The position numbers were made by a program, and so were the translations under genes. Below, piece by piece: positions 2,038-33,083 of a stretch of 64,000 bases of DNA. Source of the stretch: Massilia eburnea (lineage in GTDB: Bacteria; Pseudomonadota; Gammaproteobacteria; Burkholderiales; Burkholderiaceae_D); contig NZ_WNKX01000004.1 of NCBI RefSeq assembly GCF_009720745.1, positions 127,421-191,420 of the forward strand, in the 5' to 3' direction. The notes under the pieces were generated by a model. That model did not search any database. It was not told where the DNA came from and saw only the letters and a program-made list of their open reading frames with translations. Numbering within the stretch: position 1 is the stretch's first letter; each line of letters starts with the position of its first letter.

Positions 2038-3024
2038 ATGGCAACCGCCGCTAAGAAGAAACCAGCAGCCGCTAAAGCAGCTGCCCCAGCAAAGAAAGCT
2101 GCCGCCAAGCCGGCCGCTAAAGCCGCAGCTAAGCCAGCTGCTAAACCAGCTGCCAAGAAAGCCGCTGCCAAGCCAGCCGCTAAACCAGCAGCCAAGAAAG
2201 CCGCCGCTAAGCCAGCTGCAAAACCAGCAGCTAAGAAAGCAGCAGCTAAGCCAGTAGCGAAGAAAGCCGCTGCTAAGCCAGCAGCAAAACCAGCAGCGAA
2301 GAAAGCAGCAGCCAAGCCAGCAGCGAAGAAGACCGTCGCCAAGGCAGCAGCCAAGCCAGCAGCTAAAAAAGCAGCCGCTAAACCAGCAGCTAAAAAAGCC
2401 GTCGCTAAAAAAGCAGCAGCTAAGCCAGTAGCCAAGAAAGCAGCAGCCAAGCCGGCAGCCAAGAAAGCTGCAGCTAAACCAGCAGCGAAAAAGACCGTAG
2501 CTAAAGCCGCTGCCAAGCCAGCCGCCAAGAAAGCTGCTGCCAAGAAGCCAGCCGCCAAGAAAGCCGCTGCCAAGCCAGCTGCCAAGAAAGCTGCTGCTAA
2601 ACCAGCTGCCAAGAAAGCTGCTCCTAAAGCTGCTGCCAAGCCAGCCGCAAAAAAGCCAGCCGCTAAGAAAGCCGCTGCCAAGCCAGCTGCTAAAAAAGCC
2701 GCTCCTAAAGCCGCCGCAAAACCAGCTGCCAAGCCTGCAGCTAAAAAGGCCGCCCCAAAAAAAGCCTCGGCTAAGCCAGCAGCCAAGCCAGCTGTTGCGC
2801 CAGTAGCCGTAGCACCGGCTGCAGCTCCGGCTGCTAAACCAGCTGCCCCTAAGAAGGCCGCTCCGAAGAAACCAGCTGCTCCTAAGAAGGAAGCTGTGAA
2901 GCCAGCCGCCGCACCAGCACCTGCTGCTGCAGCCGCTCCAGCTCCAGCCGCCGCTCCGGCAGCTAAAACCGTGATCGCCCCGGCAGCCGCCTGGCCGTTC
3001 CCGACCAGCACCCGTCCTTCCTAA
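2038..3024 (+). CDS. Histone H1-like / AlgP-like nucleoid-associated protein made of AAKKAAAKPAAKP-type repeats
   Basis: Strong SD (aaggag) 8 nt upstream of the ATG. 328 aa of almost pure Ala/Lys/Pro repeats, typical of betaproteobacterial H1-like (BpH1/AlgP-type) proteins. The opposite-strand ORF 1899..3011 is the mirror artefact. Confidence 0.75.
   Translation: MATAAKKKPAAAKAAAPAKKAAAKPAAKAAAKPAAKPAAKKAAAKPAAKPAAKKAAAKPAAKPAAKKAAAKPVAKKAAAKPAAKPAAKKAAAKPAAKKTVAKAAAKPAAKKAAAKPAAKKAVAKKAAAKPVAKKAAAKPAAKKAAAKPAAKKTVAKAAAKPAAKKAAAKKPAAKKAAAKPAAKKAAAKPAAKKAAPKAAAKPAAKKPAAKKAAAKPAAKKAAPKAAAKPAAKPAAKKAAPKKASAKPAAKPAVAPVAVAPAAAPAAKPAAPKKAAPKKPAAPKKEAVKPAAAPAPAAAAAPAPAAAPAAKTVIAPAAAWPFPTSTRPS
2044..2770. 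repeat. In-frame tandem DNA repeats (about 33-36 bp units) encoding KKAAAKPAAKP
   Basis: Repeated gccaagccagc(a/t)gc(t/c)aa(a/g)aaagc(a/c)gc units visible across the CDS. Confidence 0.7.
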
Positions 3025-3054
3025 GCCGTTAAACGCTTAGTGCCGGATGGCGAA

Positions 3055-3096
3055 AACACCGCTGTGTGAGACAATCGCACAGCGGTTTTTTTATTT
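3055..3096 (+). terminator. Rho-independent terminator after the histone-like gene
   Basis: caccgctgtgtgagacaatcgcacagcgg hairpin followed by ttttttttattt. Confidence 0.55.
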
Positions 3097-3107
3097 GGAG
3101 TGAACTC

Positions 3108-3635
3108 GTGTTTAGTATTCTTAAGCTGATCGTCGATGTGGTCGCCGGCCTGCTCGGTGGCGTGCTGTTGCTGCGATTCTGGATGCAGGCTATCCGCGTC
3201 CGACCGCCTTCGTCGGTGGCACAGTTTACTTTTCAATTATCGGACTGGCTGGTGCGGCCCTTGCGCCGCATCGTCCCCGGCATGGGGGGCTATGACTGGG
3301 CCAGCCTGATAGGCGCTTTCCTGATGGTGATCCTGGCGACTTCGGTGCTGTTCCTGATAGGGGCGACGCCGGAGCTGGTGCTGCTGGCGGCCTTGCACCG
3401 CTTCCTGGAGTGGATCCTGTTCGGCTTCATGGCGCTGTTGATCATCGAGGCGGTGTTCAGCTGGGTTAATCCGCATGCGCCGCTGGCGCCATTCGTGCGT
3501 GCGCTGAATGAGCCGCTGCTTAATCCGATCCGCAAGGTGGTGCCGCTGGTGGGCAACCTGGATTTGTCGCTGCTGGTGGCGCTGATCCTGCTGCAGATCT
3601 GCCAGATCCTGCTTGGCATGCTGTTCGGCGGATGA
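3108..3635 (+). CDS. yggT: YggT family inner-membrane protein
   Basis: Hydrophobic YGGT-type sequence (ILKLIVDVVAGLLGGVLLLRFWMQ...). GTG start at 3108 preceded by ggag; the track ORF start at 3066 lies inside the upstream terminator. Confidence 0.65.
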   Translation: MFSILKLIVDVVAGLLGGVLLLRFWMQAIRVRPPSSVAQFTFQLSDWLVRPLRRIVPGMGGYDWASLIGAFLMVILATSVLFLIGATPELVLLAALHRFLEWILFGFMALLIIEAVFSWVNPHAPLAPFVRALNEPLLNPIRKVVPLVGNLDLSLLVALILLQICQILLGMLFGG

Positions 3636-3928
3636 GCCGATCGTGGTGCTCCGCGCTGCCGGGCGGCGGCGTGCGGGTGGCGGTGCAGATTCAGCCTAAT
3701 GCGAAGAAGACCGAGGTGGTCGGGGTGCTGGATGATGCGCTGAAGATCAAGCTGGCGGCCCAGCCTATCGAGGGGAAGGCGAATGAGGCGCTGGTGAAAT
3801 GGCTGGCGTCTTCGCTTGGCGTTTCACGCAGTTCCGTGACGTTGACGCATGGGCAGACCAATAAGAAGAAGTTGCTGGAGGTGGCGGGGGTGACGCTGGA
3901 GGATGTTGTTCGGCTTTTAACCCGGTAA
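3632..3928 (+). CDS. yggU: DUF167 / YggU family protein
   Basis: ...VQIQPNAKKTEVVG...IKLAAQPIEGKANEALVKWLASSLGVSRSSVTLTHGQTNKKKLLEV resembles YggU. Start overlaps the yggT stop. Confidence 0.65.
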   Translation: MSRSWCSALPGGGVRVAVQIQPNAKKTEVVGVLDDALKIKLAAQPIEGKANEALVKWLASSLGVSRSSVTLTHGQTNKKKLLEVAGVTLEDVVRLLTR

Positions 3929-4087
3929 ACCTGGGTACGACCCAAGGGTCGGACCCTGTCTGTTCGCCGGCCGCGGGTTTCGGTTGTGCGATGTTGATCT
4001 TCGCAGAATGGCAAAGGCTTTCACCCCAATCCTCGGCCGCAATACCGTTGAGGGTCTGACCCTTGGGTCAGACCCTGGTTTACCGGG
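3919..4087. repeat. REPIN-like pair: two inverted copies of a roughly 37-bp REP (cccggtaaacctgggt(a/c)(c/t)gacccaagggtc(g/a)gaccc) flanking a roughly 90-bp spacer
   Basis: 3919-3957 cccggtaaacctgggtacgacccaagggtcggaccc. The reverse complement of 4050-4087 reads cccggtaaaccagggtctgacccaagggtcagaccc. Each copy is internally palindromic. Confidence 0.6.
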
Positions 4088-4088
4088 C

Positions 4089-5033
4089 TTAGAAGCGGTA
4101 GCCGAAAGCGGCTTCAAACTTGTCCGCGATTTCGGCCGGGGTGAACACGTGATTCTGTGCACCCTTGGTCACAATCTTGATCGCGCCCAGGAGGCTGGCC
4201 AGGCGCCCGGTCGATTCCCAACCCAGGTCGTTGACCAGGCCAAACAGCAGGCCAGCGCGGTAAGCATCGCCGCAGCCGGTCGGGTCCAGGTCCATCGACG
4301 CATCCACCACCACGGCTGGAATATCAATCCGCTTGCCGCCGGTATAAATCTCCGAACCCTTCTCGCCGCGCGTCACGATCAGCGCTTCCAGCTTCGAAGC
4401 GATATCGGGAATCGTCAGGCCGGTACGCGACATCAGCAATTCGATCTCATAGTCATTGCAGGTCACATAAGCCGCTTTTTCGATGAAGCCGATCAGTTGC
4501 TCAGGCGTGAACATCGGCATCTGCTGGCCCGGGTCGAAGATGAACGGAATGCCCAGGCGCGCCAGGTCTTCCGCGTGCTTCAACATGCCCAGGTGGCCGT
4601 CCGGCGAGATGATCGCGATGCGGGCGGCGCCGGCTTTTTCGATCGGGTTCTCATGCGCGAAGGACATGGCGCCAGGATGGAAGGCGTTGATCTGGTTGTG
4701 GTCCGCGTCGGCGGTGACGAAGCACTGCGCGTTGTAGGCATCCTTCTTGATCAGGATATTGTCGGTCGACAGGCCGAGTTTCTGGAAGCGCTCCAGGTAC
4801 GCTGCGCAGTCCTGGCCCAGCACGCCCACGATGCGCGGATCGCCGCCCAGCATCTTCAGCGAGTAGGCGATATTGCCGGAGCAGCCGCCAAACTCGGTGC
4901 GCATGGTCGGCACCAGGAAGGACACGTTGACCTTGTGCAGCTGGTCGGCCAGCAGCGTGTCGCCAAAGCGGCCTTCGTATTGCATGATGATGTCGATGGC
5001 CAGCGAGCCACAGACAAGCGCGGTTTTGTTCAT
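4089..5033 (-). CDS. PfkB-family carbohydrate/nucleoside kinase (adenosine kinase-like)
   Basis: Ribokinase/PfkB-like sequence with GG N-terminal motif (GSLAIDIIMQ...GGCSGNIAYSL) and C-terminal DPTGCGDAYRAG signature. Confidence 0.75.
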   Translation of the reverse strand: MNKTALVCGSLAIDIIMQYEGRFGDTLLADQLHKVNVSFLVPTMRTEFGGCSGNIAYSLKMLGGDPRIVGVLGQDCAAYLERFQKLGLSTDNILIKKDAYNAQCFVTADADHNQINAFHPGAMSFAHENPIEKAGAARIAIISPDGHLGMLKHAEDLARLGIPFIFDPGQQMPMFTPEQLIGFIEKAAYVTCNDYEIELLMSRTGLTIPDIASKLEALIVTRGEKGSEIYTGGKRIDIPAVVVDASMDLDPTGCGDAYRAGLLFGLVNDLGWESTGRLASLLGAIKIVTKGAQNHVFTPAEIADKFEAAFGYRF

Positions 5034-5040
5034 AGTATTT

Positions 5041-7908
5041 TTATGGGTAGAAAATGGCGATGTGATAGCCGGAGGCTTTGAGCTCTTTCAGCTCAAAGTA
5101 CAGTTTAATGCTTTGCTCGCTGCGCGGGCCGAAGCCTCTTTCGGCGTCCGCTGGCGACGGCAGGTATTCGCGCGGGGCGAACACGCGGCGCAGTACCGGC
5201 TTGTCGGCGTTGTCGTTCAGGGTCAGTTCGATGTGCGGCCAGGCCTGTGCGGTCTTGGACTGGTTGCGCAGCACGGTGCTGAAGCTGAAGGTGTTTTCGG
5301 CCATGGTGGCCAGCTCGCCTTGCTCGATACTGAGGGCGTCGAGCTGGGTGGGCAGGGCGATCTTGCAGCCGAGCGGCTGGCACATGGCGGCCAGCGTTGG
5401 CTTCAGCTGCGGGTAGTTGGCGGCCAGCGTGTCGCGGAAGGTGGTAGCAGCTTGCAGGGCCAGGCCGGCCAGCAGCACGGGGATGCCGATGGCCATGGTG
5501 ATGGCGGCGGCTTTGCCGTACTTCTGGCTGCGGTCGACGCGCTTCACGAAGCTCAGGTCGGAATGGTCGAGGTCATCGGCTTCGTCGACGCCAGCCAGGG
5601 CGCGCATGCGGGCTGCGGCAAGGGCGGCTTCGGCTTCGGCCTGTTCTTCGTCGATGGGCAGGGACTCGCCGTCATCGGGGACGTCGGTGTTGACGGCTGC
5701 CACGGCGTGCAGGGCGGTGGCGTCGCGTTCAGGCTCCGGCTCGGACAGGCTCCAAGGTTCGCCGGTTGGCGAGAGGTCGTGGATTTCGGCGGCGGCCGAC
5801 CATGGTTCCTCGGTTAGCGAAGGTTCGCTGCTTGCCGGTGCGGCGTCGGCATCGAGGTCGAGGGCGTCGTCTGCTTCGGGGGCGGCATTGGCGTCGGCGG
5901 CGAAGGAGGCCTCCTGCGGCTGGTCGGCTGGCGGGAGGTCTTCAAAATGGTGCGCGTCGTCGATTGCGGCTAGGACAATGTGCTCTTGCGGGATGTCGAA
6001 CGAAGGCTCGATGCGGCCGTCGGGGCGCGCGTTGTCGGCCGACCATTGGTCGATGGCTTCAATCAGGGCCGCGCCAGCGGGAGCATCCGGTTCTGCGCCG
6101 GCCTCGAAGACGGGAACTTCAACTTCGGGCGCGGGTTCTGCATGGTCGGGTTCCGACGGTGCGGCTGTTGCGGCTATGCCGGTTGCGGGCTGCTCGTCGG
6201 TGGCCGGCGCTTCGTCGGCGGGTGGGGGAAGCGCCTCGTCAGCGGCCGGCGCGTCGGCGGCACTCGGTTCATCGGCGGCAGTTAGCCCGCCGATGGCGGT
6301 GGGGCCGGCGGCACTTGGCAGTTCGTCGGCGGCTGGGGCCTCGCCAGCAGCTAGTGGCGCGTCGGCGGGGAGCGGTTGACCGGCGGCGGGTAGCTCGTCC
6401 ATGGCGCCCAGTCCGTCTGTAGCGGGCAGCTCGTCGGCAGCCGGCGCCTCGTCAGTCAATGCCGCGACGGCGGTTGGCTGCGTCGGGACGGCGGCTTCTG
6501 GCGCCGCGACATCGGCGGGTGATGACGAGCCGGTGGCTGGCGCTTGATCGGCAGCAGGTGGCTCGTTGGCTGCGACCGGTTCGTCTGCAAGCGGCAATTC
6601 GTCCGCAGCAGGCGGCACATCAGCAGCGTGCGGCGCATCGGCAGTAGCGGGCAAATCAGAAGCGAACGGCACGTCAGAAACGGACGGCACATTCACAGCA
6701 GGCGCTGCATCGACAGCAGGCGCTATATCGACAGCAGGCGCTATATCGACAGCAGGCTGCGCATCAGCAGAGCGCTGCTCGACGGCGGCTGGTGGCGTTT
6801 CGCCAGCGGGCGAAGGCGAGTTCACTGCATGCGCAGGCTCGGAAGTGTCGAACAAAAAATCGTCGACAAGCGGCGTGATCTCCTGGGCGGGCGCTTTCTT
6901 TTCGTCTGACGGGCTCTTGGCGTTGTTGAAGGCGCGGGCAACTGCGGCCATGGCGGCGGCGTCGGATGCTGCCGATGCGTTTGCCGGGATGTCTTCCCAT
7001 ACCAGCAGCTTTTCGTCGATCGCAGCCGACGGCGAGGCGGCAGGTGGGACTGCCGCGGTGGCGGGCGGAGGCGCCGAAGCTGTCCACGGCCCGGAAGCCG
7101 GCGGTTCACCGGCCGCTTCCGAGAATGCGTCATCGGGGGATACCAAAGCTGCCAGCGGGTGCGGCGCGGGTGGCGCTGCTGTCGGCGGCTCGGCTGGGCG
7201 CAGCGGCGCTTGCGGCGGCGCAGGCTGCGGAGCTGCCTGCTGCGCCGGCGAAGGTGTGGTCGCGGCGGCAAAGGCGCGCGCTACGGCGGCGCGGGCAGCG
7301 TCGTCGGGCGAAGGCTCGGCGGCTGGCGCCTGCGTGGCGGCAGTGCGCCAGACTGCAGGCGCTGGAGCTTCCGCCGGCGGAAGTGCGGAACCTGTCGGCT
7401 TGACCGCAGGCGGCAAAGTGGTGGTAGCGGCCCGCGCCGGTGCAGCATCAGCCGCCTTGAAGGCCGATTGTGGCTCGGCAGCACGGGAGGCCGGCGGCGA
7501 AGCTTCAACCGGCTTGGCTGCGGGCAGCCCGGTGCTTGCGGGGCGCGGCGGAGCGATGTCGGGCGCCTTCGGCGCAAATGGCGGCTGGGCAGGGCGAGGC
7601 GCGGGCGGCGCGGCATGCGGCGCTGGCGCGGCATGCGATGCCTCGTCGGCGAAATCGAGTTCGAAGTCGACGGGGGTGCCGTGGACGTAGTCGGAGATGG
7701 CTGGGGTGGTGTGCGCCGGTGCGGCGCGTTCCGCGACGACGTCGGGAATGACGGGCGTAGGCTTGGCCGCCGGTTCGACTAGCGCGGAGTTGCCATCGAA
7801 GACCTGGTGGCAGGAGCCACAACGGACAATGCCCCCGCGCAGTTTCAGCTGGTCAGCCGCGACCCTGAAGATCGTATTGCAATGGGGGCATTTAGTGGCG
7901 AGCGCCAT
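5041..7908 (-). CDS. Zinc-ribbon (MJ0042-type) N-terminal / DUF3426 C-terminal protein with a roughly 700-aa Pro/Ala-rich low-complexity core
   Basis: N-terminus MALATKCPHCNTIFRVAADQLKLRGGIVRCGSCHQVFDG (CxxC...CxxC). C-terminal TM plus DUF3426-like tail. Located after prmA as in other betaproteobacteria. Confidence 0.65.
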   Translation of the reverse strand: MALATKCPHCNTIFRVAADQLKLRGGIVRCGSCHQVFDGNSALVEPAAKPTPVIPDVVAERAAPAHTTPAISDYVHGTPVDFELDFADEASHAAPAPHAAPPAPRPAQPPFAPKAPDIAPPRPASTGLPAAKPVEASPPASRAAEPQSAFKAADAAPARAATTTLPPAVKPTGSALPPAEAPAPAVWRTAATQAPAAEPSPDDAARAAVARAFAAATTPSPAQQAAPQPAPPQAPLRPAEPPTAAPPAPHPLAALVSPDDAFSEAAGEPPASGPWTASAPPPATAAVPPAASPSAAIDEKLLVWEDIPANASAASDAAAMAAVARAFNNAKSPSDEKKAPAQEITPLVDDFLFDTSEPAHAVNSPSPAGETPPAAVEQRSADAQPAVDIAPAVDIAPAVDAAPAVNVPSVSDVPFASDLPATADAPHAADVPPAADELPLADEPVAANEPPAADQAPATGSSSPADVAAPEAAVPTQPTAVAALTDEAPAADELPATDGLGAMDELPAAGQPLPADAPLAAGEAPAADELPSAAGPTAIGGLTAADEPSAADAPAADEALPPPADEAPATDEQPATGIAATAAPSEPDHAEPAPEVEVPVFEAGAEPDAPAGAALIEAIDQWSADNARPDGRIEPSFDIPQEHIVLAAIDDAHHFEDLPPADQPQEASFAADANAAPEADDALDLDADAAPASSEPSLTEEPWSAAAEIHDLSPTGEPWSLSEPEPERDATALHAVAAVNTDVPDDGESLPIDEEQAEAEAALAAARMRALAGVDEADDLDHSDLSFVKRVDRSQKYGKAAAITMAIGIPVLLAGLALQAATTFRDTLAANYPQLKPTLAAMCQPLGCKIALPTQLDALSIEQGELATMAENTFSFSTVLRNQSKTAQAWPHIELTLNDNADKPVLRRVFAPREYLPSPADAERGFGPRSEQSIKLYFELKELKASGYHIAIFYP

Positions 7909-7925
7909 CAGTCGGGAAGATTACC

Positions 7926-8837
7926 TTATGCCAGCGTGCCGGACAGGCACACCCAGCCTTCGTGCTCAGCCCAGACGCTCAGCTTGATGAACGGCGCGTA
8001 GGCCGCAGCAACTTCTTCCGCCTGGCGCGCCAGCACGCCGGACAGCACCAGCGAACCGCCCGGCGCCACGCGGCCGGACAGCATCGGCGCCATCAGCTTG
8101 AGCGGCGAGGACAGGATGTTGGCGACAACGATGTCGAAACGCTGCGAGGCGAACGACGATTCCGCGAAATCATCCGGCACGAAATACTGGATGTCTTCCA
8201 CGCGGTTGCGCACCGCATTGTCGTTGGCCGACACGATAGCCTGTGGATCAATATCCACGCCTGCCACGATTGTGGCGCCCAGCTTGCGCGCCACCATGGC
8301 CAGGATGCCCGAACCGCAGCCGTAGTCCAGCACGGACTTGCCCGGAGCCGGATGGCTTTCGAGCCACTCCATGCACAGCTTGGTGGTCGGGTGGGAACCG
8401 GTACCGAAGGCCAGGCCAGGGTCCAGTTCCAGGATCAGCGCGGAAGGATCCGGCGCCTCGTGCCAGCTTGGCACGACCCAGATGTTCTTGCCGATGTGGA
8501 TCGGCTCAAATTGCGACTGGGTCAAACGCACCCAGTCGGCGTCCTCCACCTTGCGGGTGGTGAACTTGGGCAGGTGAGCCAGCCCGACCGCGCCAGCGGC
8601 AGCCGCCACGATCAGGGCCTGGTCTTCCTCGTCATCGGTCAGCGCGACCACGCGGCTATGATCCCATGCCGCTTCGGTCGGCTCCATGCCCGGCTCGCCG
8701 AACAGGGGTTTTTCGGCGTCGGTGCCTTCGTCGGCATCCTCCACCGACACCGACAGCGCGCCCGCATCCATCAGCGCTTCGGACAGGGCCTCAGCGTGTT
8801 CACGGGCTACTTCGATGACGATTTCAGTCCAGCTCAT
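7926..8837 (-). CDS. prmA: Ribosomal protein L11 methyltransferase
   Basis: [10 protein letters not shown]...[12 protein letters not shown]...DIDPQA motifs. Start moved to MSWTEI (ATG at 8835-8837) rather than the longer track ORF. Confidence 0.85.
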
Positions 8838-8841
8838 TTTA

Positions 8842-10200
8842 TTACTTACCTGCCTTCGGCATTTCTGCCAGACGTTGTTCCAAATAGTGAATGTTAGTGC
8901 CGCCTTCGATGAAGCGCGCATCAACCATCAGCTCGCGGTGCAGCGGGATGTTGGTCGAAATGCCTTCAACAACCATTTCCGACAGTGCAATCTGCATGCG
9001 GCGAATCGCCTGCTCGCGGGTTGCGCCGTAGGTAATGACCTTGCCGATCATCGAATCGTAGTTCGGTGGTACAAAGTAACCCGAGTAGGAGTGCGAGTCA
9101 ACGCGCACGCCTGGGCCGCCCGGTACATGCCATGCGGTGATGCGGCCTGGCGACGGGGTGAACTTGAACGGATCTTCGGCGTTGATACGGCATTCGATGG
9201 CGTGGCCGGACAGCATCACGTCGCGCTGGCGGAAGCGCAGCTTTTCGCCGGAGGCGATGCGGATCTGTTCCTGCACGATGTCGATACCGGTGATCATTTC
9301 GGTCACTGGGTGTTCAACCTGCACGCGGGTGTTCATTTCAATGAAATAGAACTCGCCGTTTTCGTACAGGAACTCGAAGGTGCCCGCGCCGCGGTAGCCG
9401 ATCTTGCGGCAAGCTTCGGCGCAGCGGTCGCCGATCTTTTCGATCAGCTTGCGCGGGATGCCGGGCGCCGGTGCTTCCTCGATCACCTTCTGGTGGCGGC
9501 GCTGCATGGAGCAGTCACGTTCGCCCAGCCAGACGGCGTTTTTGTGTTCGTCGGCGAGGATCTGGATTTCCACGTGGCGCGGGTTCTCCAGGTACTTCTC
9601 CATATAGACTTCCGGATTGCCGAAGGCGGCGCCGGCCTCCGACTTGGTCATGGTGACCGCGTTCAGCAGGGCAGCTTCGGTGTGCACCACGCGCATGCCG
9701 CGGCCACCGCCGCCGCCCGCCGCCTTGATGATCACCGGGTAGCCGACTTTGCGTGCGATCTGCACGATGGCTTTCGGGTCATCCGGCAGGGCGCCGTCGG
9801 AACCTGGCACGCAAGGCACGCCGGCCTTGATCATCGCCTGCTTGGCCGACACTTTGTCGCCCATCATGCGGATCGATTCGGCGCGCGGGCCGATGAAGAC
9901 GAAACCGGATTTCTCCACGCGCTCGGCGAAGTCCGCGTTCTCGGACAGGAAGCCGTAGCCTGGATGGATCGCTTCCGCGTCGGTCACTTCGGCCGCGGAA
10001 ATGATGGCCGGCATATTCAGGTAGGACTGGGCCGAAGGCGCAGGGCCGATGCAGACGGATTCGTCGGCCAGCTTCACGTACTTGGCGTCACGGTCGGCTT
10101 CGGAGTGCACGACCACAGTCTTGATGCCCAGTTCGCGGCACGCGCGCTGGATGCGCAGGGCGATTTCGCCGCGATTGGCAATAAGGATTTTTTCAAACAT
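8842..10200 (-). CDS. accC: Acetyl-CoA carboxylase biotin carboxylase subunit
   Basis: [17 protein letters not shown]...ATP-grasp motifs. Start at MFEKIL (ATG 10198-10200). Confidence 0.9.
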
Positions 10201-10266
10201 GGCAGATTCGGTGTGGGATGTGAGTGTGCTGGCCGCCTGGTTGTCCACAGCGGCCATGGCCCGGCT

Positions 10267-10737
10267 TTAGCCGATCACAAACAGTGGCTGGCCGAATTCG
10301 ACCGGTTGGCCGTTTTCGACCAGGATCTGGGTGATGGTGCCGGACTTGTCGGCATCGATCTCGTTCAGCAGCTTCATCGCTTCGATGATGCAGAGGGTGT
10401 CGCCTTCTTTCACGGTGGCGCCGACTTCAACGAAGGCTGGGTTGCCAGGTGCGGAAGCGCGGTAGAAAGTGCCGACCATTGGCGACTTCACAACGTGGCC
10501 GGTTGGTTCGGCGGCAGCTGGAGCGGCGGCGGCAGGCGCGGCGACCGGTGCGGCGACTGGAGCGCCGGCAGGTGCGTAATGGGTTGGCGCTTGCGGCGGC
10601 ATCATCATGACCTGGTTCGGCATGACGCCGCCGGACTTGACGATGCGAACCTTGCTTTCGCCTTCGGTCACTTCCAGTTCAGCGATGTCCGACTCTGCTA
10701 CCAGGTCGATCAGCGTCTTCAGCTTGCGTAGATCCAT
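10267..10737 (-). CDS. accB: Biotin carboxyl carrier protein
   Basis: C-terminal EAMKLLNEI biotinylation motif and the usual Ala/Pro-rich linker. Confidence 0.9.
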
Positions 10738-10832
10738 GTTGTTGGCTCCCTTGTTCTATCTATTATGTTGATGGTTTCTGCGAAGTCGCCTTATGGACGC
10801 CATCGCGTTAGATGCGCGCAGATCGCGGTAGA

Positions 10833-11270
10833 TTAACTGCTTTTTAAGGCAAAGTCGATGGCGAGACGATATCCCTCGATACCAAGCCCGCAAATCGTCC
10901 CCTGTGCGATAGCGCTGAGATAGGAATGGTGGCGGAATTCCTCCCGCCGATAAATATTCGAAATGTGTACTTCAATAAATGGGATCGCTACGCCGGCCAA
11001 GGCATCGCGCAAGGCGACGCTGGTGTGGGTGTAGCCTCCCGGGTTGATCACGATGAAATCCACGCCCTCGGTTCGGGCTGCGTGGATGCGGTCAATCAAC
11101 GCTCCTTCGTGGTTACTTTGGAAACAGGCGAGCTGTGCACCGGCTGCTTTGGCTTGTGCCTGCGCTGCCTGTTCCACGTCTGCCAGCGTGCTGGCGCCGT
11201 AGGTTTCAGGCTCGCGCGTCCCCAACAAATTCAGGTTGGGGCCATTAAGAAGCAGCAGGTGTCTTGCCAT
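10833..11270 (-). CDS. aroQ: Type II 3-dehydroquinate dehydratase
   Basis: [25 protein letters not shown]...[13 protein letters not shown]. Start at ATG 11268-11270. Confidence 0.9.
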
Positions 11271-11385
11271 GATTCCCTGACCATTTTCTGCGAAAGTTCC
11301 GCATTTTGCCGCCATCTACAAGCATTGGCAAGAGAAAATAGCTTGGCGGAAGTTAATAGAACGGTCGTTCGACGACGTTCTTCCG

Positions 11386-12539: not shown

Positions 12540-12547
12540 GATTGCAT

Positions 12548-12662
12548 CATACCTAAAACCCCGTAAACCTGGGTCTGACCCAAGGGTCAGACCCAGTACG
12601 GTCTCCGGGCCGCGAGCGAGCGGTAGTTGAGCAGACAGGGGCGGACCCTTGGGTCAGACCCC
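12548..12662. repeat. REPIN-like pair of the same REP family as 3919-4087, in the divergent promoter region
   Basis: 12551-12587 ccccgtaaacctgggtctgacccaagggtcagaccc, and 12630-12660 ggggcggacccttgggtcagacccc inverted partial copy. Confidence 0.55.
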
Positions 12663-12718
12663 GAATTTCCAGTTTTAATCAGGTAAAATCCGGCTCTTGA
12701 TTCTTTTCTATCACCACC

Positions 12719-15257: not shown

Positions 15258-17287
15258 ATGTATTTTTTGAAGAATCCGGCGATTTCAAAGTAGGCAGCGT
15301 GCTGTCGCAGGCAGGCGAGGCCTACCAGGTTGAAATGGCGAGCGGCAAGCGCAACAAGGTGAAAACCAAGGATGTGATGCTGCAGTTCGACAAGCCGTCG
15401 CCGGCTGAGCTGATGGAGCAGGCCAAGGCCATCGCGGCAGAGGTTGACCTGGACTTCCTGTGGGAAGTGGCGGGCGAAGAGGAATTCGGCTTTGCCGAGC
15501 TGGGCGCCGAATATTTCGGCCATGCCCCGCAGCCGGCGGAAGCTGCCGGCCTGATCCTGAGCCTGCACGCGGCGCCGATCTACTTCCATAAGAAGGGCCG
15601 TGGCCGCTACAAGAAAGCGCCGGAGCAGACATTGAAGGCGGCCCTGGCCGGCATCGAGAAGAAAAAGCAGCAAGCCATCATCCAGGGCCAGTATGCCGCG
15701 GAGCTGAAGGCGGGCACCCTGCCGGCTTCGATGCAGAACATCGTCAGCCAGCTGCTGTTCAAGCCGGACAAGAACACGATTGAATACAAGGCGCTGGAGC
15801 AGGCGGCGAACGAGGCGCACACCACGCCGGCGCGCCTGATGCTGTCGGCCGGCGGCATCAAGTCGCCGAAGGACCTGCATATGGCGAGATTCCTGTTCGA
15901 GAATTTCCCGAAGGGCCACGGCTTCCCGGAGCTGCCGGTGCCTGCAGCGCCGGCCGGCTTGCCGACTGCGGCGGTTGAAGCGTTCTCCATCGACGACGTG
16001 ACCACCACCGAAATCGACGATGCCTTCTCCGTGGTGCACCAGCCGGATGGCAAGGTGCGCGTGGGTATCCACATCGCCGCGCCCGGCCTGGGCATCAAGC
16101 CGGACGATGCGATCGACAAGATCGCGCGCAGCCGCATGTCCACCGTGTATATGCCCGGCGACAAGATCACCATGCTGCCGGACGCGATTGTCGACGCTTT
16201 CACCCTGGCCGAAGGCAAGACTTGCCCGGCACTGTCGCTGTACGCGGTGCTGGATCCGGCCGACTGGAAGGTGATTTCCACCGAAACCAAGGCCGAACTG
16301 GTGCCGATCGCGAACAACCTGCGCCACAACACGCTGGACGAGCTGGTGAACGAGCAGACCCTGGCCAGCGGCGAGGGCGATTATCCGCGCAAGGCCGAAC
16401 TGACCCTGCTGTGGGGCTGGGCCCAGCACCTGGAAGCGGGCCGCATGGTCAAGCGCGAGGCGTTTGGCCTGAAGCCGGAGCAGAACAACCGCGTCGACTT
16501 CAACTTCTATGTGGAAGACGACGTCGTCACCATTTCCCGCCGCAAGCGCGGTGCGCCGCTGGACAAGATCGTGGCCGAGCTGATGATCTTCGCCAATTCC
16601 ACCTGGGGCAAGCTGATGCACGACCATGGCGTGCCGGGGATCTACCGTACCCAAGGGCAGGGCGTGGGCGGCTGGGCGGCCAAGATGCAGGTGCGCATGA
16701 TGACCCAGGCGGCGCCGCACCAGGGTTTGGGCGTGGACCAGTATGCCTGGTCGACTTCGCCGCTGCGCCGCTATACCGACCTGGTCAACCAGTGGCAGAT
16801 CCTGGCTTGCGCTTCGCATGGCGTGACGGCGCCGATGGTGGCGCCGTTCAAGCACAAGGATGCGAACCTGTTTGCGATCGTGTCGGCGTTTGATGCGGCG
16901 TATGCGGCCTATGCGGACTTCCAGTCGAATATGGAGCGCTATTGGTGCCTGCGCTGGCTGGGGCAGGAAAATGCCAAGGAAGTCGAGGCAGTGGTGTTGA
17001 AGGATGAGGTGCTGCGTTTGTCCGAGATTCCGCTGATCGTGCGCATGCCGGGCATGCCTTCTGTTGCGCGCGGGTCACATGTGAAGCTCGATGTGCTGCG
17101 CTGGGATGAGGTGGACCTGGCAATCGAAACGCGCTTGCAGGAAGGGTCGATTACCTTGCCTTCGGAGCCTGAGCCGGAACTGGATGAGGAGGAGGCGCCG
17201 GCTGATCCGGCGCAGCCTACCGAGGTGGATGCGGAGGAGGCCTCGCTGGCCAGTGAGGCTGTTGTGACGGAGCCAGGGCCGCAGTAA
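15254..17287 (+). CDS. rnb: RNase II/RNB-family 3'-5' exoribonuclease
   Basis: RNB catalytic domain sequence (TIDDVTTTEIDDAFSVV...). ATGA overlap with ubiC. Confidence 0.75.
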   Translation: MNVFFEESGDFKVGSVLSQAGEAYQVEMASGKRNKVKTKDVMLQFDKPSPAELMEQAKAIAAEVDLDFLWEVAGEEEFGFAELGAEYFGHAPQPAEAAGLILSLHAAPIYFHKKGRGRYKKAPEQTLKAALAGIEKKKQQAIIQGQYAAELKAGTLPASMQNIVSQLLFKPDKNTIEYKALEQAANEAHTTPARLMLSAGGIKSPKDLHMARFLFENFPKGHGFPELPVPAAPAGLPTAAVEAFSIDDVTTTEIDDAFSVVHQPDGKVRVGIHIAAPGLGIKPDDAIDKIARSRMSTVYMPGDKITMLPDAIVDAFTLAEGKTCPALSLYAVLDPADWKVISTETKAELVPIANNLRHNTLDELVNEQTLASGEGDYPRKAELTLLWGWAQHLEAGRMVKREAFGLKPEQNNRVDFNFYVEDDVVTISRRKRGAPLDKIVAELMIFANSTWGKLMHDHGVPGIYRTQGQGVGGWAAKMQVRMMTQAAPHQGLGVDQYAWSTSPLRRYTDLVNQWQILACASHGVTAPMVAPFKHKDANLFAIVSAFDAAYAAYADFQSNMERYWCLRWLGQENAKEVEAVVLKDEVLRLSEIPLIVRMPGMPSVARGSHVKLDVLRWDEVDLAIETRLQEGSITLPSEPEPELDEEEAPADPAQPTEVDAEEASLASEAVVTEPGPQ

Positions 17288-17295
17288 ACCAGTAC

Positions 17296-17372
17296 GCCGG
17301 TGCCTGACCCGCAGGTCAGGCACCCGCCCTGCGGCCGCCGCGTAACGGGTGTCTGACCCCATGGCTCAGACA
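17296..17372. repeat. Pair of REP palindromes (gtgcctgacccgcaggtcaggcac and gtgtctgaccccatggctcagacac)
   Basis: Two perfect or near-perfect 24-25 bp palindromes in the rnb-tonB intergenic space. Confidence 0.5.
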
Positions 17373-17434
17373 CCGAATTGCCGGTTTGTCGTAGAATCCA
17401 AGATTCTCAAAAGCATCATTCTAGAATTCAGCGC

Positions 17435-19835: not shown

Positions 19836-20206
19836 AAAAATATCAAAGTGGAATCAGCTTGATTGCTGTGGCTGTGGTGATGGGCGTGCTGGGCGCGGCG
19901 GCAGCGTTTGCGCTGATCTCGATGCGCCACGAGCGCAACCTGTTTGCCGAGGGGCTCGAAAAGGTGGGGGCGAAGGCGGCTGCAGTGGCAGCGCCGGTGG
20001 TGTCGCAGGTGGCGCCGCCTGCTCCCATGCGCAAATGCGTCATCCATGGCAAGACGGTGATCTCCAATGCCGAGTGCGGGGATCAGGGGAAGGTGATCGA
20101 GATCCACGATACCAAGGGCTTTGAGGCGCCCAAGGCTCCACCTAAGCCGGCGCCGGAGACGCAGCCGACGGCTTCGGAGCGGGCGATTCAGCAGGCGACC
20201 CGCTAA
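19832..20206 (+). CDS. Small membrane-anchored hypothetical protein (DUF4124-like)
   Basis: GTG start overlapping the mtgA stop. N-terminal TM, then a Cys-containing stretch ([17 protein letters not shown]). Confidence 0.45.
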
Positions 20207-20300
20207 ACCGGTAAACCTGTGTCAGACCCGCAGGGTCTGACACTAGCTGGCGGCGGCCGCGTATCAAGTGTCTGACCCGCCGGGTCTGGCACTGATCCAC
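20207..20300. repeat. REP palindrome pair (ccggtaaacctgtgtcagacccgcagggtctgacac ... gtgtctgacccgccgggtctggcac)
   Basis: Same ccggtaaacc leader and GTCTGACCC core as the other REP loci. Confidence 0.5.
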
Positions 20301-20406
20301 CGGTTTAAAAAAATGCATCACCAGGACTGGCCCCGCAAGCCCCTTTGCGGGTACACTTGCGAAGTTTTTTAGAACCCGCGCTCTACACCCCCCTGTCCGG
20401 CTGAGA

Positions 20407-21378: not shown

Positions 21379-21557
21379 GCTGCAAGAACGCAACGCTTTG
21401 TAACTGAAGGTCACCTGGTCGCGGGCTCTCCGTCCGCGCCGACCCGTCTGTGCGGCGCTTTTGTACTTGTCAATCAAAGAGGGCATCTGCGCCACAGTTG
21501 ACACGAAAGTATCGATGTCACATTCTTTCGAATGGCAATTCACATTCGGGAGAACTC

Positions 21558-22676: not shown

Positions 22677-22747
22677 TTTACTGGAAGAAATGACAAGCTG
22701 AGTATAGAATCCCCGACAATCTTATCAAATTGTCTAAGGGGAGCCGG

Positions 22748-31039: not shown

Positions 31040-32962
31040 ATGTTGCAGTACTATTTGATTGCTGGCCTGGTGGTGTTGATCATCCTGGTCATTGCCAGCA
31101 ACTGCATTGTTTACATCCCCAACGAAAAGCTTGGCATCGTTGAGAAAAAATGGTCCGGGCGCGGTTCGGTGCAGGGCGGCTTTATCGCACTGAATGGCGA
31201 AGCCGGCTTCCAGCCTGCCGTCCTGCGCGGCGGTTTCCACCTGTTCTTCCCCTTCCAGTACCGTGTGCATCGCCACGACCTGGTGACCATCCAGCAAGGG
31301 ACGCTGGCCTATGTGTTCGCGCGTGACGGCTTGCCGATGGCGCCAAGCCAGAACCTGGCCTGCAACAAGGCCGCCAATGATTTCACCGACGTGCGCGCCT
31401 TCCTCGACAACGGCGGCCAGAAAGGCTTGCAACGCAAGATCATGCGCGAAGGTACCTATGCCATCAACCTGGCGCAATTCGTCGTGCTGACCGAAGACCG
31501 CGTGTATGCCTTGCGCCTGCCCGGCGACGGCAACATCAACAGCAAGGGTGAAGTCGTGGGCTCGCTGGCGGCGGTGCTGGAAGACCTGTCCTCGCGCGGC
31601 GGCTTCCGCCCGCTGGTGATCCGCGAAGACAAGCTGGCCGTGGTCACCACGCATGAAGGCCGCTCGCTGCCGGAAGGTACCATTGTCGCCCCTGTGGTTG
31701 CAGGCGATCACCGCGATTACCAGGAGCCTGAGGCCTTCATCGACCATGGCGGCTTCAAAGGACGCCAACTGCAGGTTCTGGTGGAAGGTACCTACTACCT
31801 GAACGCCCGCTTCGCGACGCACGAGATCGTGGCCAAGACCATCGTGCCAGTCGGCTTCGTCGGCGTCGTGGTGTCTTATACCGGCAAGGAAGGCAACGAC
31901 ATCACCGGCGAGAGCTATCGCCACGGTGAACTGGTCGGCGACGACGAGAAGGGCGTGCAGGCGACGCCGCTGCTGCCTGGCAAATACGCGCTGAACCCGT
32001 ACGCCAAGAAAGTGATCGAAGTGCCGACCACGAACTTCATCCTGAAATGGCAGGCAGGCCAGGTCGGATCGCATGAACTGGACCGCAGCCTGTCGGAGAT
32101 TTCGCTGATCACGAAGGATGCTTTCGAGCCCGACCTGCCTTTGTCGGTAGTGGTCAATATCGACTACAAGATGGCGCCGCTGGTCATCCAGCGCTTTGGC
32201 GATATCCGCCGCCTGGTGGAGCAGACGCTGGACCCGATGGTCGCCGCCTACTTCAAGAATATCGGCCAGGGCAAAACGCTGATCGAGCTGCTGCAGGAAC
32301 GTTCCGACATCCAGGAGCGCGCCAAGGAGGAAATGCGCCGTAATTTCGCAGGCTACAACCTGACGCTGAACGAAGTGCTGATTGGTACGCCGCGCGCCAA
32401 ACAAGGCGACACGCAGATCGAGACGATCTTGCGCCAGCTGCGTGAACGCCAGGTGTCGCGTGAACAGCTCGAGACGTACAAGACCAAGGAAGCAGCGGCG
32501 GTGCAGGAACGCATCCTGCGCGAAGCGGAAGCGCGCGCCAGCCAGCAGACCTCGATCACGCAGTCCGAGCTGGCGGTGAAGATTGCCGAGAACAACGGTT
32601 CCGCCGCCGTGCAGAAGGCCATCAAGTCAGCTGAGGAAGCGCGCCAGATGGCAGCCGGTTCCGCCGACGCCAAGCGCAAGCTGGCCGAAGCCGAGGCGTA
32701 CCAAGTAGCAGCGATTGGCCAGGCGCAAGCCAAGGCAACCGAGATGAACGTCGCCGCCTATGGCGGCCCTGAGCTGCAGTTCCAGCAGACGGTGCTGATG
32801 CGATTTGCGGAAGCGATCGAGCGCGGCCAGGTGCAACTGGTGCCCTCGATCCAGGTCGGCGGCAGCGGCCAGGGCAGCGGCAGCGCCATCGACGCCTTCA
32901 TGGCGATGGCAGTGAAGGAAATGGCAGCGCGCCAGCTCAAGCAAGAGCAGCCCGCCGCCTAA
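31040..32962 (+). CDS. Flotillin-like SPFH/band-7 membrane protein (YqiK family) with long C-terminal coiled coil
   Basis: N-terminal TM (YYLIAGLVVLIILVIASNCIV), SPFH domain, EA-rich flotillin-type repeats (EAEARASQQ..., KLAEAEAYQVAAIGQAQAKATE). Confidence 0.75.
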   Translation: MLQYYLIAGLVVLIILVIASNCIVYIPNEKLGIVEKKWSGRGSVQGGFIALNGEAGFQPAVLRGGFHLFFPFQYRVHRHDLVTIQQGTLAYVFARDGLPMAPSQNLACNKAANDFTDVRAFLDNGGQKGLQRKIMREGTYAINLAQFVVLTEDRVYALRLPGDGNINSKGEVVGSLAAVLEDLSSRGGFRPLVIREDKLAVVTTHEGRSLPEGTIVAPVVAGDHRDYQEPEAFIDHGGFKGRQLQVLVEGTYYLNARFATHEIVAKTIVPVGFVGVVVSYTGKEGNDITGESYRHGELVGDDEKGVQATPLLPGKYALNPYAKKVIEVPTTNFILKWQAGQVGSHELDRSLSEISLITKDAFEPDLPLSVVVNIDYKMAPLVIQRFGDIRRLVEQTLDPMVAAYFKNIGQGKTLIELLQERSDIQERAKEEMRRNFAGYNLTLNEVLIGTPRAKQGDTQIETILRQLRERQVSREQLETYKTKEAAAVQERILREAEARASQQTSITQSELAVKIAENNGSAAVQKAIKSAEEARQMAAGSADAKRKLAEAEAYQVAAIGQAQAKATEMNVAAYGGPELQFQQTVLMRFAEAIERGQVQLVPSIQVGGSGQGSGSAIDAFMAMAVKEMAARQLKQEQPAA

Positions 32963-33078
32963 GCCGAGCCCGTGTCCCACCATGGGGTCACACCCGAAAT
33001 GGGACACGGGCTCTAGTGTTATGCACTTGAGTTCGTGTCCCGAAACGGGTGTGACCCCAGGGTGGGACACGAGCTCGG
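32963..33078. repeat. REPIN-like pair of a second REP family (gtgtcccac...ggtcacac / gtgtgacc...gtgggacac), two inverted approximately 48-bp palindromic units
   Basis: gagcccgtgtcccaccatggggtcacacccgaaatgggacacgggctc and gagttcgtgtcccgaaacgggtgtgaccccagggtgggacacgagctc. Confidence 0.55.
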
Positions 33079-33083
33079 CTGTA

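Follow-up and report, generated by a model that had tools for sequence, protein, structure and literature searches.

Five intergenic sites in the 64-kb stretch of DNA analysed here (the window, meaning the whole stretch) carry short palindromes in inverted pairs, which raises the question of whether they are sequences that the host conserves in place or members of a mobile population. The window has a G+C content of 63.8% and is ~94-96% identical to Pseudoduganella MAGs. We conclude that the five sites are very probably REPINs, that is, inverted pairs of REP hairpins acting as one non-autonomous mobile unit, and that two families of them coexist in a chromosome of the Pseudoduganella/Duganella/Massilia type (Oxalobacteraceae).

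Two REP families form five inverted doublets

A preliminary description of the window had recognised two sequence families of palindromes at intergenic places. A profile scan bore this out, with four family-1 doublets (3918-4090, 12556-12677, 17285-17387 and 20204-20307) and one family-2 doublet (32962-33083), all five of them intergenic; palindromes were present at every place listed earlier, although the coordinates given were a few bases off. The family-1 unit consists of a head, AAA(A/C)CCGGTAAACC, followed by the palindrome GGGTCTGACCC-AA-GGGTCAGACCC, and the family-2 doublet is made of 48-nt hairpins, GAGCCCGTGTCCCA...TGGGACACGGGCTC. Copies in the window were scored by an nhmmer profile scan, which found zero additional family-1 copies in the whole 64 kb (z, folding relative to shuffles):

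3918..3957, plus strand: site A left REP, family 1; head AACCCGGTAAACC and palindrome variant GGGTACGACCC-AA-GGGTCGGACCC; nhmmer E = 7e-13
3958..4050, no strand: site A spacer of a long-form REPIN, itself an imperfect palindrome
4051..4090, minus strand: site A right REP, family 1; perfect core; fold z = -4.5; nhmmer E = 6e-15
12556..12594, plus strand: site B left REP, family 1; perfect core; z = -5.9; nhmmer E = 3.5e-14
12595..12643, no strand: site B spacer, a long-form spacer with an internal deletion, ~51 nt shorter
12644..12677, minus strand: site B right REP, family 1; z = -0.45; nhmmer E = 1e-8
17285..17327, plus strand: site D left REP, family-1 variant; head TAAACCAGTACGCC and palindrome GGTGCCTGACC...GGTCAGGCACC; z = -5.2
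17348..17387, minus strand: site D right REP; GGTGTCTGAGCC...GGGTCAGACACC and head AAACCGGCAATTC; z = -3.7; nhmmer 17366-17387, E = 0.026
20204..20243, plus strand: site C left REP, family-1 variant; head TAAACCGGTAAACC and palindrome GTGTCAGACCC-GCA-GGGTCTGACAC; z = -5.7; nhmmer E = 1e-7
20267..20307, minus strand: site C right REP, degraded; GTGCCAGACCCGGCGGGTCAGACAC and head AAACCGGTGGATC; z = -1.2; nhmmer 20282-20307, E = 0.97
32962..33020, plus strand: site E left REP, family 2; 48-nt hairpin; z = -5.9; nhmmer E = 5e-20
33023..33083, minus strand: site E right REP, family 2; z = -2.5; nhmmer E = 8e-18

Sites C and D are stem variants (GTGTC...GACAC; GGTGCC...GGCACC) that retain family-1 heads. 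The stretch at 17296-17372, where related variants had been noted, and that at 20207-20300, which had been taken for a single element, are each an inverted doublet with 48-49 bp between the palindromes. The family-2 doublet had been described as perfect; its arms are 84% complementary over 57 nt, and its left hairpin has a 14-bp stem (GAGCCCGTGTCCCA / TGGGACACGGGCTC) and a 20-nt loop. Long-form copies at other, unrelated loci share part of the site A spacer sequence, and the whole site A element matches locus L010 at 78%. Of the ten REP arms in the window, three show degradation, namely 12644-12677, with two core mismatches, a mutated head and a hairpin at shuffle level, 20267-20307 and, less so, 3918-3957. 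Some of the window copies are therefore probably immobile relics.

Copy number, spacing and folding exceed chance

The k-mer count that the preliminary description had proposed, made on public genomes and metagenomes, supported a REPIN reading for both families. At least 108 8-kb blocks of public genomes contain the family-1 20-mer GTCTGACCCAAGGGTCAGAC, against ~1 expected by chance, and 106 of the blocks listed are Pseudoduganella, Duganella, Massilia or other Oxalobacteraceae-type records; the closest named relative, MAG SMAGNO151 (93.7% identity), has at least 20 of them. The family-2 core 25-mer was found in 92 metagenome stretches, with 177 copies. A fuzzy count of family 1 gave 201 copies in 837 kb, arranged as 72 doublets, 57 singlets and one cluster of four. 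These doublets almost always point heads-outward ('+-'), and their spacing is quantised at 45-47, 55-59 or ~118 bp, while in family 2 the '+-' doublets spaced at 73-77 bp (n = 78) take up 156 of the 177 copies, the window doublet being spaced at 74 bp. Hundreds of copies follow the REPIN architecture read earlier from the window: both families are high-copy repeats, dispersed over intergenic places, in which the doublet dominates, nearly always in one polarity and at a few fixed spacings, and forms a long single-stranded DNA hairpin.

The conserved family-1 unit spans positions -15 to +23 around the palindrome, with conservation falling sharply outside, and its stem pair 5-18 covaries (T-A 130, A-T 38, C-G 16). 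Most single hairpins and the whole site A doublet fold far below shuffles (z -3.7 to -8.8), the latter, with its flanks (3912-4096), at -58.1 kcal/mol versus -28.7 for shuffles (z = -8.8); four degraded arms fold at shuffle level (z -0.45 to -1.4). Chance palindromes were ruled out by this folding and by the count of a degenerate palindrome pattern in the window (three matches versus 0.04 expected). The 10-mer GTGTCCCACC by itself does not exceed the chance level, whereas the 48-nt family-2 arm does. CRISPR-like or tandem arrays were also ruled out, as the copies are dispersed inverted pairs. Neither family has the unpaired GTAG at the foot of the stem that typifies classical REPs: the family-1 logo has GGTAAACC at -8..-1 and one variable base before the stem, and the family-2 stem begins GAGCCCGTG. 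A REPIN search of PLSDB plasmids returned no match, and an Rfam search of the window returned no family.

Each family has its own RAYT gene in close relatives

The window had been said to hold no RAYT, and this was confirmed, as tblastn with both RAYTs matched a REP-encoded tail only and a motif scan was empty. In close relatives, each family has its own Y1/HUH RAYT (IS200-like), flanked by REPs of that family, which is the arrangement that the preliminary description had proposed to look for. The family-1 RAYT, first located via REP pairs ~669 bp apart, was found in four related genomes (L108:1481-2128, L103:3686-4327, L100:5249-5890 and L211:3001-3639) with family-1 REPs on both sides of each gene, pointing heads-inward, a polarity opposite to that of the REPIN. 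The family-2 RAYT lies on metagenome contig L185 (1230-2003, minus strand) between family-2 REPs 885 bp apart, and is also present on metagenome contig L208. The named RAYT clusters are mostly on one contig.

The RAYT proteins are 212-257 aa long, that of family 2 with a weak C-terminal HTH. In the RAYT located via REP pairs, the H-x-H motif reads N-H-V-H; the histidines H60 and H62 and the tyrosine Y120 are invariant in 24 homologues. The family-1 protein matches Pfam Y1_Tnp (E = 5e-17) and scores 76.8 bits against NCBIfam REP_Tyr_transpos, 3 bits short of the cutoff of 80, which the family-2 protein exceeds at 87.5 bits. A single-sequence phmmer search against solved structures gave no match, while the profile of the 24 homologues matched ISDra2 TnpA best (2XM3, E = 2.6e-5), and also E. 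coli TnpA-REP (4ER8, E = 1.7e-4).

Among five relatives examined, the family-1 RAYT adjoins spoT in four (L108, L103, L100 and L211); it adjoins greB in L211 and in the fifth, L222, where the spoT side holds an IS256-type transposase. The conserved spoT/greB position would fit a gene inherited vertically.

For the source genome, we infer the RAYT and the REPIN copy number from relatives that are 88-96% identical. One alternative is a REPIN population that is dead there, its cognate RAYT or RAYTs lost or inactivated and its copies decaying. Such decay would agree with the degraded window arms, with the distance of the stem variants at sites C and D from the master sequence, with the collapse of orthologous copies to singlets in relatives (see below) and with the disrupted RAYT neighbourhood of L222. 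We nevertheless consider it improbable, given that two window arms (4052-4075 and 12571-12594) keep the exact 24-nt master palindrome, that the family-2 window arms score near the top of all copies in the profile scan, and that the closest named relative retains, adjacent to spoT, an intact family-1 RAYT of 212 aa with perfect flanking REPs.

Filled, empty and collapsed sites in relatives

Comparing insertion sites across relatives, another check proposed at the outset, revealed empty counterparts of 17285-17387 and 20204-20307 in more distant relatives. Site C is absent in L111, L112, L113, L114, L117 and L118, and site D in L118; a family-2 hairpin occurs in L113 but not at the corresponding place in L118. 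In intermediate relatives, sites C and D are each represented by a collapsed singlet, one hairpin with both heads. Site B is filled in every relative examined, with a long-form spacer in L215, L216, L074 and L054. Because sites C and D are empty in relatives, they appear to have been gained after the lineage splits and later collapsed to singlets, precise loss being formally possible. These filled/empty contrasts are between lineages 8-18% diverged and show gain or loss and not ongoing activity; no transposition intermediate or near-identical-strain insertion was seen. Loci selected for REPs had an element at most of their orthologous sites, and in the single empty case (L043 versus L011) the divergence was too great for boundaries to be drawn.

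The boundaries of the inserts bear on whether the doublets are conventional MITEs, i.e. deletion derivatives of a DDE-transposase IS with 40-nt terminal inverted repeats and a target-site duplication, like the Correia elements of Neisseria. Long terminal inverted repeats are indeed a feature of the doublet, and the 4-nt direct repeat TAAA on both sides of the site C insert and the CCGT bounding the family-2 insert in L113 can each be read as a target-site duplication. At site D, however, only 1 nt (T) is repeated; no constant duplication emerges across these few and diverged filled/empty pairs, and the outer flanks of ~200 copies are inverted, not direct, repeats. Moreover, the sole transposase genes found between these sequences are the Y1/HUH RAYTs, one per family, and a survey of REP pairs 250-4000 bp apart in the 837 kb yielded no larger element with the same ends besides the RAYT loci. 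Correia elements themselves are similar in being intergenic inverted repeats of ~100-170 bp near gene ends in a betaproteobacterium, with long and internally deleted short forms. They have a TA target duplication and are not known to be associated with a Y1 transposase, whereas the present doublets lack a consistent duplication and both families come with a RAYT. We give very little credence to a MITE origin and continue to regard the doublets as REPINs.

REPINs at gene 3' ends and stop codons

Four of the five window sites abut gene 3' ends, often overlapping the stop codon itself. At site A, the stop TAA (3926-3928) of yggU (3632-3928; DUF167, E = 2e-23) lies inside the left head, and the outer end of the right REP overlaps the stop (4089-4091) of a convergent pfkB-family kinase gene (4089-5033, minus strand). 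The terminal TAA of site D (17285-17287) is the stop of an RNase II-family gene (15254-17287), which has TGA at the empty site versus the TAA of the REP at the filled site, and the terminal TAA of site C (20204-20206) is the stop of the ORF at 19832-20206. The left REP of site E begins immediately after the stop (32960-32962) of a Band_7 gene, and its right REP lies 0 nt from the stop (33084-33086) of a convergent class-III aminotransferase gene (33084-34556, minus strand). Site B occupies a divergent intergenic region, its left REP ~16 bp upstream of the start codon of the ORF at 11928-12539 (minus strand). More generally, 44% of family-1 heads overlap a stop codon, and the inverted outer flanks of family 1 are T-R-A rich (T-R-A-A-A... 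/ ...T-T-T-Y-A) across the ~200 copies.

This placement, together with the occupation of site B in every relative, is what one would expect of structural or regulatory palindromes selected by the host (terminators, mRNA 3'-end stabilisers or protein-binding sites) and conserved in place without being mobile. In E. coli, REPs stabilise upstream mRNA and affect translation termination. Against such a reading, no T-run accompanies the REP hairpins, the terminator scan called none of them, and site C is followed, at 20343-20364, by a canonical terminator distinct from it. The recurrence of the same 40 nt, including non-pairing head bases, at >100 unrelated loci needs copying rather than convergence; presence or absence at sites C, D and E differs between lineages, and the same sequence is found on either side of a transposase gene dedicated to it. 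The probability that these are immobile host palindromes is accordingly very small, and a secondary host function would be compatible with the REPIN explanation. Intrinsic terminators were likewise rejected from the terminator calls, 19 in all versus a shuffle expectation of 17.2, which included no REP hairpin at 3000-21000.

By analogy with IS200/IS605 and E. coli TnpA-REP, a RAYT supplied in trans would recognise single-stranded DNA, such as that exposed at the replication fork, by binding the REP hairpin together with its 5' head, cut and rejoin it via a 5'-phosphotyrosine intermediate, and move or copy the whole doublet to a new extragenic place. Point mutation and internal deletion would later turn doublets into short forms and singlets. 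The elements either insert at gene 3' ends or are retained there, and the stop codon of the host gene is often provided or overlapped by the A-rich outer end (TAAA...). More speculatively, family-1 REPINs may have the T-R-A(A) of stop codons, scarce A/T islands where the genome is 64% G+C, as their target instead of landing in extragenic DNA at random, and may routinely replace or supply the host stop and the last few codons. We hold this idea to be doubtful; if true, the RAYT/REPIN pair would act on gene 3' ends as a sequence-specific editor, turning the guide-and-target logic of IS200/IS605 on stop codons.

Comparison with known REPIN-RAYT systems

A close parallel is the REPIN-RAYT system of Pseudomonas fluorescens SBW25 (Bertels & Rainey 2011, PMC3116915; RAYT groups, Bertels et al. 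2017, PMC5581495), in which inverted REPs with a spacer of fixed length likewise form a single long hairpin. As in SBW25, doublets outnumber singlets, several families share a genome, every one of them has a RAYT of its own between its REPs, the RAYT is apparently kept at a conserved chromosomal position, and singlets and short forms arise by decay. Unlike in SBW25, the host is a betaproteobacterium of the Oxalobacteraceae and the REP sequences are unrelated; the family-1 unit has a 15-nt unpaired head (AAAMCCGGTAAACC) instead of a GTAG tag, the spacers fall into three discrete classes, including a 170-nt long form, and the 48-nt hairpin of the family-2 REP carries a 20-nt loop.

The REP/BIME elements of E. 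coli, served by the Y1/HUH relative TnpA-REP (RayT/YafM; 4ER8, Messing et al. 2012, PMC3479197), are also extragenic, often a few bases from stop codons, and the transposase gene is flanked by its REPs. The similarity to TnpA-REP is, however, remote, the proteins found here are longer, and E. coli REPs differ in their GTAG tag and in BIMEs with protein-binding spacers. IS200/IS605 elements (IS608 and ISDra2 TnpA) belong to the same transposase fold family, use subterminal hairpins as recognition elements and leave no clear target-site duplication; the family-2 RAYT, lying between a '+' and a '-' REP, recalls their ends. In contrast to these elements, the RAYT genes appear to occupy a conserved chromosomal position rather than occurring as many identical copies, and the part that has multiplied is a gene-free hairpin doublet.

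Short palindromes, mostly head-to-head dimers as here, are known from the GTAG-tagged REPs and RAYT-flanking TIRs of Stenotrophomonas and other Proteobacteria (Di Nocera et al. 2013, PMC3733652; Nunvar et al. 2013, PMC3686654). Related strains likewise differ strongly in the abundance of these palindromes, gene ends are overlapped by some of the units and RAYT genes are flanked by them, but neither family described here has an unpaired GTAG or CGTC directly at the stem foot. Inverted repeats that flank RAYTs may equally be untagged, according to Di Nocera et al. (2013), a paper from which Oxalobacteraceae names are absent, and our literature search found no description of REPINs in Oxalobacteraceae (Pseudoduganella, Duganella, Massilia).

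The window elements are an ordinary, previously undescribed example of a well-known REPIN system, and they leave the understanding of how REPIN-RAYT systems work unchanged. They add two well-defined REPIN families and their RAYT genes in Oxalobacteraceae, and with them a further independent lineage for long-term REPIN-RAYT co-evolution, in which a genome has several RAYT paralogues and the REP palindromes change along with the RAYT. The REPINs may be of use as strain-typing markers, and annotation stands to benefit: the RAYTs are mostly annotated just as 'transposase', the REPINs have no annotation at all, and the ends of several host genes lie inside REPINs.

Inverted REP doublets in the window

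All of the palindromes listed in the preliminary description were present in the window, and its reading of them as REPINs, that is, inverted doublets of palindromic hairpin units (REPs), was sound as an observation and correct as an interpretation. A search of the 64-kb window with a family-1 profile built on ~200 copies from related genomes placed family-1 REPs at four sites (A–D) and found none beyond them, while the only family-2 profile matches were the two arms of site E.

REP elements in the window
3918-3957 (+), site A, family-1 REP (profile search)
4051-4090 (-), site A, family-1 REP (profile search)
12556-12594 (+), site B, family-1 REP (profile search)
12644-12677 (-), site B, family-1 REP (profile search)
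17285-17327 (+), site D, more diverged family-1 partner
17366-17387 (-), site D, family-1 REP (profile search)
20204-20243 (+), site C, family-1 REP (profile search)
20282-20307 (-), site C, family-1 REP (profile search)
32962-33020 (+), site E, family-2 REP
33023-33083 (-), site E, family-2 REP

All five inverted doublets are intergenic. Sites C and D retain the family-1 head (the 5' unpaired stretch) at both outer ends; each is a doublet of a stem variant, GTGTC...GACAC (20207-20300) and GGTGCC...GGCACC (17296-17372), respectively. The family-2 pair, described as a perfect doublet at 32963-33078, is indeed inverted but not perfect, with 84% complementarity across 57 nt of its arms. Chance palindromes were ruled out by pattern excess and folding: in this window of 63.8% G+C, a degenerate palindrome pattern gave 3 matches against 0.04 expected by chance, and intact REP arms had folding z scores of -3.7 to -5.9. 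The whole doublet at 3912-4096 folded into a single hairpin (-58 kcal/mol, z = -8.8).

Family 1 is a dispersed repeat copied as a doublet

A scan of one genome per species (596 Gb) for GTCTGACCCAAGGGTCAGAC, the 20-mer put forward for counting in the preliminary description, matched at least 108 8-kb blocks, of which 106 were of Pseudoduganella, Duganella, Massilia or other Oxalobacteraceae type; the two outliers are close to the chance expectation for a 20-mer in 596 Gb (~1 match). Counted by contig prefix, one MAG contributed at least 26 blocks and the MAG Pseudoduganella sp. SMAGNO151 at least 20.

We found 201 copies at ≤4 mismatches in 837 kb of matched blocks, neighbouring copies being nearly always in '+-' order with heads outward, and start-to-start spacings peaking at 45-47, 55-59 and 115-120 bp. 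Grouping yielded 72 doublets, 57 singlets and one four-copy cluster; site A is of the long form (119 bp) and sites C and D of the short form (48-49 bp). The logo defines a conserved unit of ~40 nt, (T)AAA[A/C]CCGGTAAACC[W]GGGTC[T/A]GACCC-AA-GGGTC[A/T]GACCC, with a sharp loss of conservation beyond position -15. Substitutions at stem pair 5-18 are compensatory (T-A 130, A-T 38, C-G 16), and at pair 1-22 the GTGTC...GACAC variant has T-A in place of G-C. The long-form spacer is itself palindromic and is partly conserved between copies at unrelated loci; the unit that has been copied is therefore the entire doublet rather than a lone REP.

Cognate RAYTs in related genomes

As the preliminary description stated, the window has no gene for a RAYT (the associated Y1/HUH transposase), a REP-encoded protein tail being the only match. 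It had proposed looking for a RAYT flanked by matching REPs, and listing REP pairs 250-4000 bp apart in the family-1 loci revealed one in related genomes: at three loci a '-' REP and, 668-670 bp away, a '+' REP enclose a 212-215-aa ORF matching Pfam Y1_Tnp (E = 5e-17 to 7e-18) and, at 76.8 bits, falling slightly below the curated 80-bit cutoff of NCBIfam 'REP-associated tyrosine transposase'. Its H-V-H and Y-I-E-L-N-P-V-R-A motifs have histidines and tyrosine invariant in 24 homologues, and a profile of these matches ISDra2 TnpA (2XM3, E = 2.6e-5) and E. coli TnpA-REP (4ER8, E = 1.7e-4). The head of the upstream REP adjoins the ribosome-binding site, and the downstream REP encodes the last 12-14 codons (tail GKPGSDPRVRP), as listed here with each locus's own coordinates.

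REP-encoded RAYT tails in loci of relatives
L108:2080-2128
L103:4285-4330
L100:5845-5890
L211:3600-3640

REPs around this RAYT point heads-inward, the reverse of REPIN polarity. SMAGNO151, the named relative nearest to the window, has the same gene with family-1 REPs on both sides. The RAYT adjoins spoT in four genomes and greB in two; these shared neighbours are consistent with vertical inheritance of the gene at a fixed position. In Pseudoduganella sp. UC29_106 (locus L222), a 55%-identical homologue is preceded by a REP (L222:1170-1215) with a similar head and a different palindrome, GGTGTCTGCCAC...GTGGCAGACACC; a changed palindrome beside a diverged RAYT is what REP-RAYT co-divergence would predict. 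An IS256-type (Transposase_mut) gene at L222:1857-3033 occupies the position of spoT in other genomes. Family-1 RAYT proteins are mostly annotated as plain 'transposase'.

For family 2, the bare 10-mer GTGTCCCACC is no more frequent than chance, but the 25-mer core occurs in 92 metagenome stretches, and the 48-nt arm recurs at a non-orthologous SMAGNO151 locus (L016). Among 177 copies there are 78 '+-' pairs at 73-77 bp, the window pair lying at 74 bp. Here too a RAYT flanked by matching REPs was found, on metagenome loci L185 and L208, where a 257-aa ORF (L185:1230-2003) lies between the REPs of two pairs spaced at 884-885 bp. It exceeds the NCBIfam REP_Tyr_transpos cutoff (87.5 bits), matches Pfam Y1_Tnp (E = 1e-11), has a weak C-terminal helix-turn-helix and is 34% identical to the family-1 RAYT. 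Family 2 is a second REPIN-RAYT system. Homologues are labelled 'REP-associated tyrosine transposase' or 'RayT' across many Pseudoduganella, Duganella, Massilia and Janthinobacterium genomes. The complete genome of Pseudoduganella sp. HUAS MS19 has at least three RAYT paralogues (P0017, P0132 and P0146; one type 1, two type 2), which suggests more REP families in the genus.

The 837 kb picked for family 1 (L001-L108) held ~1 family-2 copy, and the 734 kb picked for family 2 (L119-L210) four family-1 copies; the two populations seem to prevail in different lineages. The window has both families together.

The window doublets match the definition of REPINs, their cognate RAYTs being known here from relatives. 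They resemble described REPINs and RAYTs (Bertels & Rainey 2011, PMC3116915; Bertels et al. 2017, PMC5581495) in the predominance of doublets, fixed polarity and spacing, long hairpin, apparently conserved RAYT position, decay to singlets and, as seen in the relatives, family-specific RAYTs flanked by their own REPs. Typical REPs, however, carry a GTAG tag (Di Nocera et al. 2013, PMC3733652), which both families lack, and differ from family 1 by its long unpaired head and from family 2 by its large-loop hairpin. In the literature searched, no paper connected REPINs or RAYTs with Pseudoduganella, Duganella or Massilia or gave these sequences, and PLSDB plasmids lack this REPIN.

History of the individual sites

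Partial matches to the window were a JGI metagenome contig (L116/L215) at 95.7% identity, SMAGNO151 (L074) at 93.7%, an uncultured Duganella MAG (L054) at 92.5%, and Pseudoduganella sp. R-43 and Duganella sp. CF458 at ~88-90%. We retrieved orthologous regions from ~8 lineages via exact PilH and AccB matches, and the comparison of insertion sites proposed earlier showed C and D empty in some of them. At site C, alignment is interrupted exactly at 20207/20306; L111, L112, L113, L114, L117 and L118 have an uninterrupted GCTAAA-AATATGC, and L215 (95.6%) and L212 (91%) one hairpin with both heads. At site D, L118 reads CAG-TGA-AGTAGAAT and the window CAG-[TAAACC...CCGGTT]-TGTCGTAGAAT, the element's TAA standing in place of the host TGA stop; L212 has a collapsed singlet.

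Site B is occupied in all relatives compared, with a long form in L215, L216, L074 and L054, a window form ~51 nt shorter and a diverged short form in L212; in the 95-96% relatives (L215:8004-8044, L216:3905-3941) the REP head is duplicated (CCAGGTTTACCGGTTTTAATTTACCGGTTTTAATC). At site A, the L212/L214/L217 lineage (~91% identical; also L213) keeps the right REP alone beside pfkB, and is missing the left REP, the spacer and yggU (DUF167); the interval is 414 bp in the window (3638-4051) versus 21 bp in L212 (16263-16283), and a deletion that ended on one side within the REPIN may account for the loss. The family-2 doublet of site E is common to L116, L109 and L115; L113 has a single related hairpin and L118 none. 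At this spot, upstream of the aminotransferase stop, L111 (6990-7090) and L110 (7003-7100) carry a long palindromic element (AAAGTCGGGGTCAGGTCTGGCAATCCGCCACATTTTTCGC...) of a third type, unrelated to the others. These filled, empty, singlet and shortened states point to insertion of the window copies after lineage splits and to their later decay via internal deletion, a route of decay known for REPINs (PMC3116915, PMC5581495).

The 3' end of the aminotransferase gene is an intergenic spot collecting different hairpin elements. The family-2 doublet also lies at the right-hand junction of a variable alpha-2-macroglobulin/PbpC/Band_7 block (21450-32962) between corA and the aminotransferase gene. 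The window shares this block with L109, L115 and L116; in L110 it lacks Band_7, and L111-L114, L117 and L118 have other genes in its place.

Element boundaries are ambiguous: TAAA stands at both flanks of site C, CCGT at both flanks of the L113 family-2 insert, and the flanks of site D have T alone in common. Over the set of copies the outer flanks are inverted relative to each other (T-R-A-A-A... / ...T-T-T-Y-A) and are no direct repeat, a pattern that an IS200/IS605-like mechanism without duplication would, tentatively, fit better than a DDE MITE origin of the doublets.

Host genes and transcript ends

In the relatives (loci L001-L108), the stop of a long upstream ORF overlaps the outer end or the internal GGTAAACC of 81/185 family-1 REPs, a figure (~44%) that is approximate because spurious long ORFs can arise at high G+C. 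Overlapping stops begin at -17..-15 or at -7 (TAA 67, TGA 11, TAG 3). Four window genes have their stop codons on or within a REP head (3926-3928, 4089-4091, 17285-17287 and 20204-20206), including yggU (DUF167, E = 2e-23), whose TAA lies within the site A head at 3926-3928; the terminal T-A-A of REPs ends pfkB, RNase II and ORF 19832-20206. The overlap could come from a T-R-A(A) target preference or from selection. A terminator scan detected no intrinsic-terminator-like hairpins among the REPs between 3000 and 21000, a separate canonical terminator lying 3' of site C, and the window contains no Rfam families.

Other repeats in the window

Three diverged ~100-nt direct repeats (6248-6623 and 6065-7597) lie within ORF 5041-7908(-), a zinc-ribbon/DUF3426 protein in relatives, to which the repeat-bearing part aligns poorly or not at all. 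The direct-repeat output of the window is dominated by ORF 2038-3024, an Ala/Lys/Pro-rich protein of AAKKPA-type units whose DNA repeats have periods of 12, 15 and 27.
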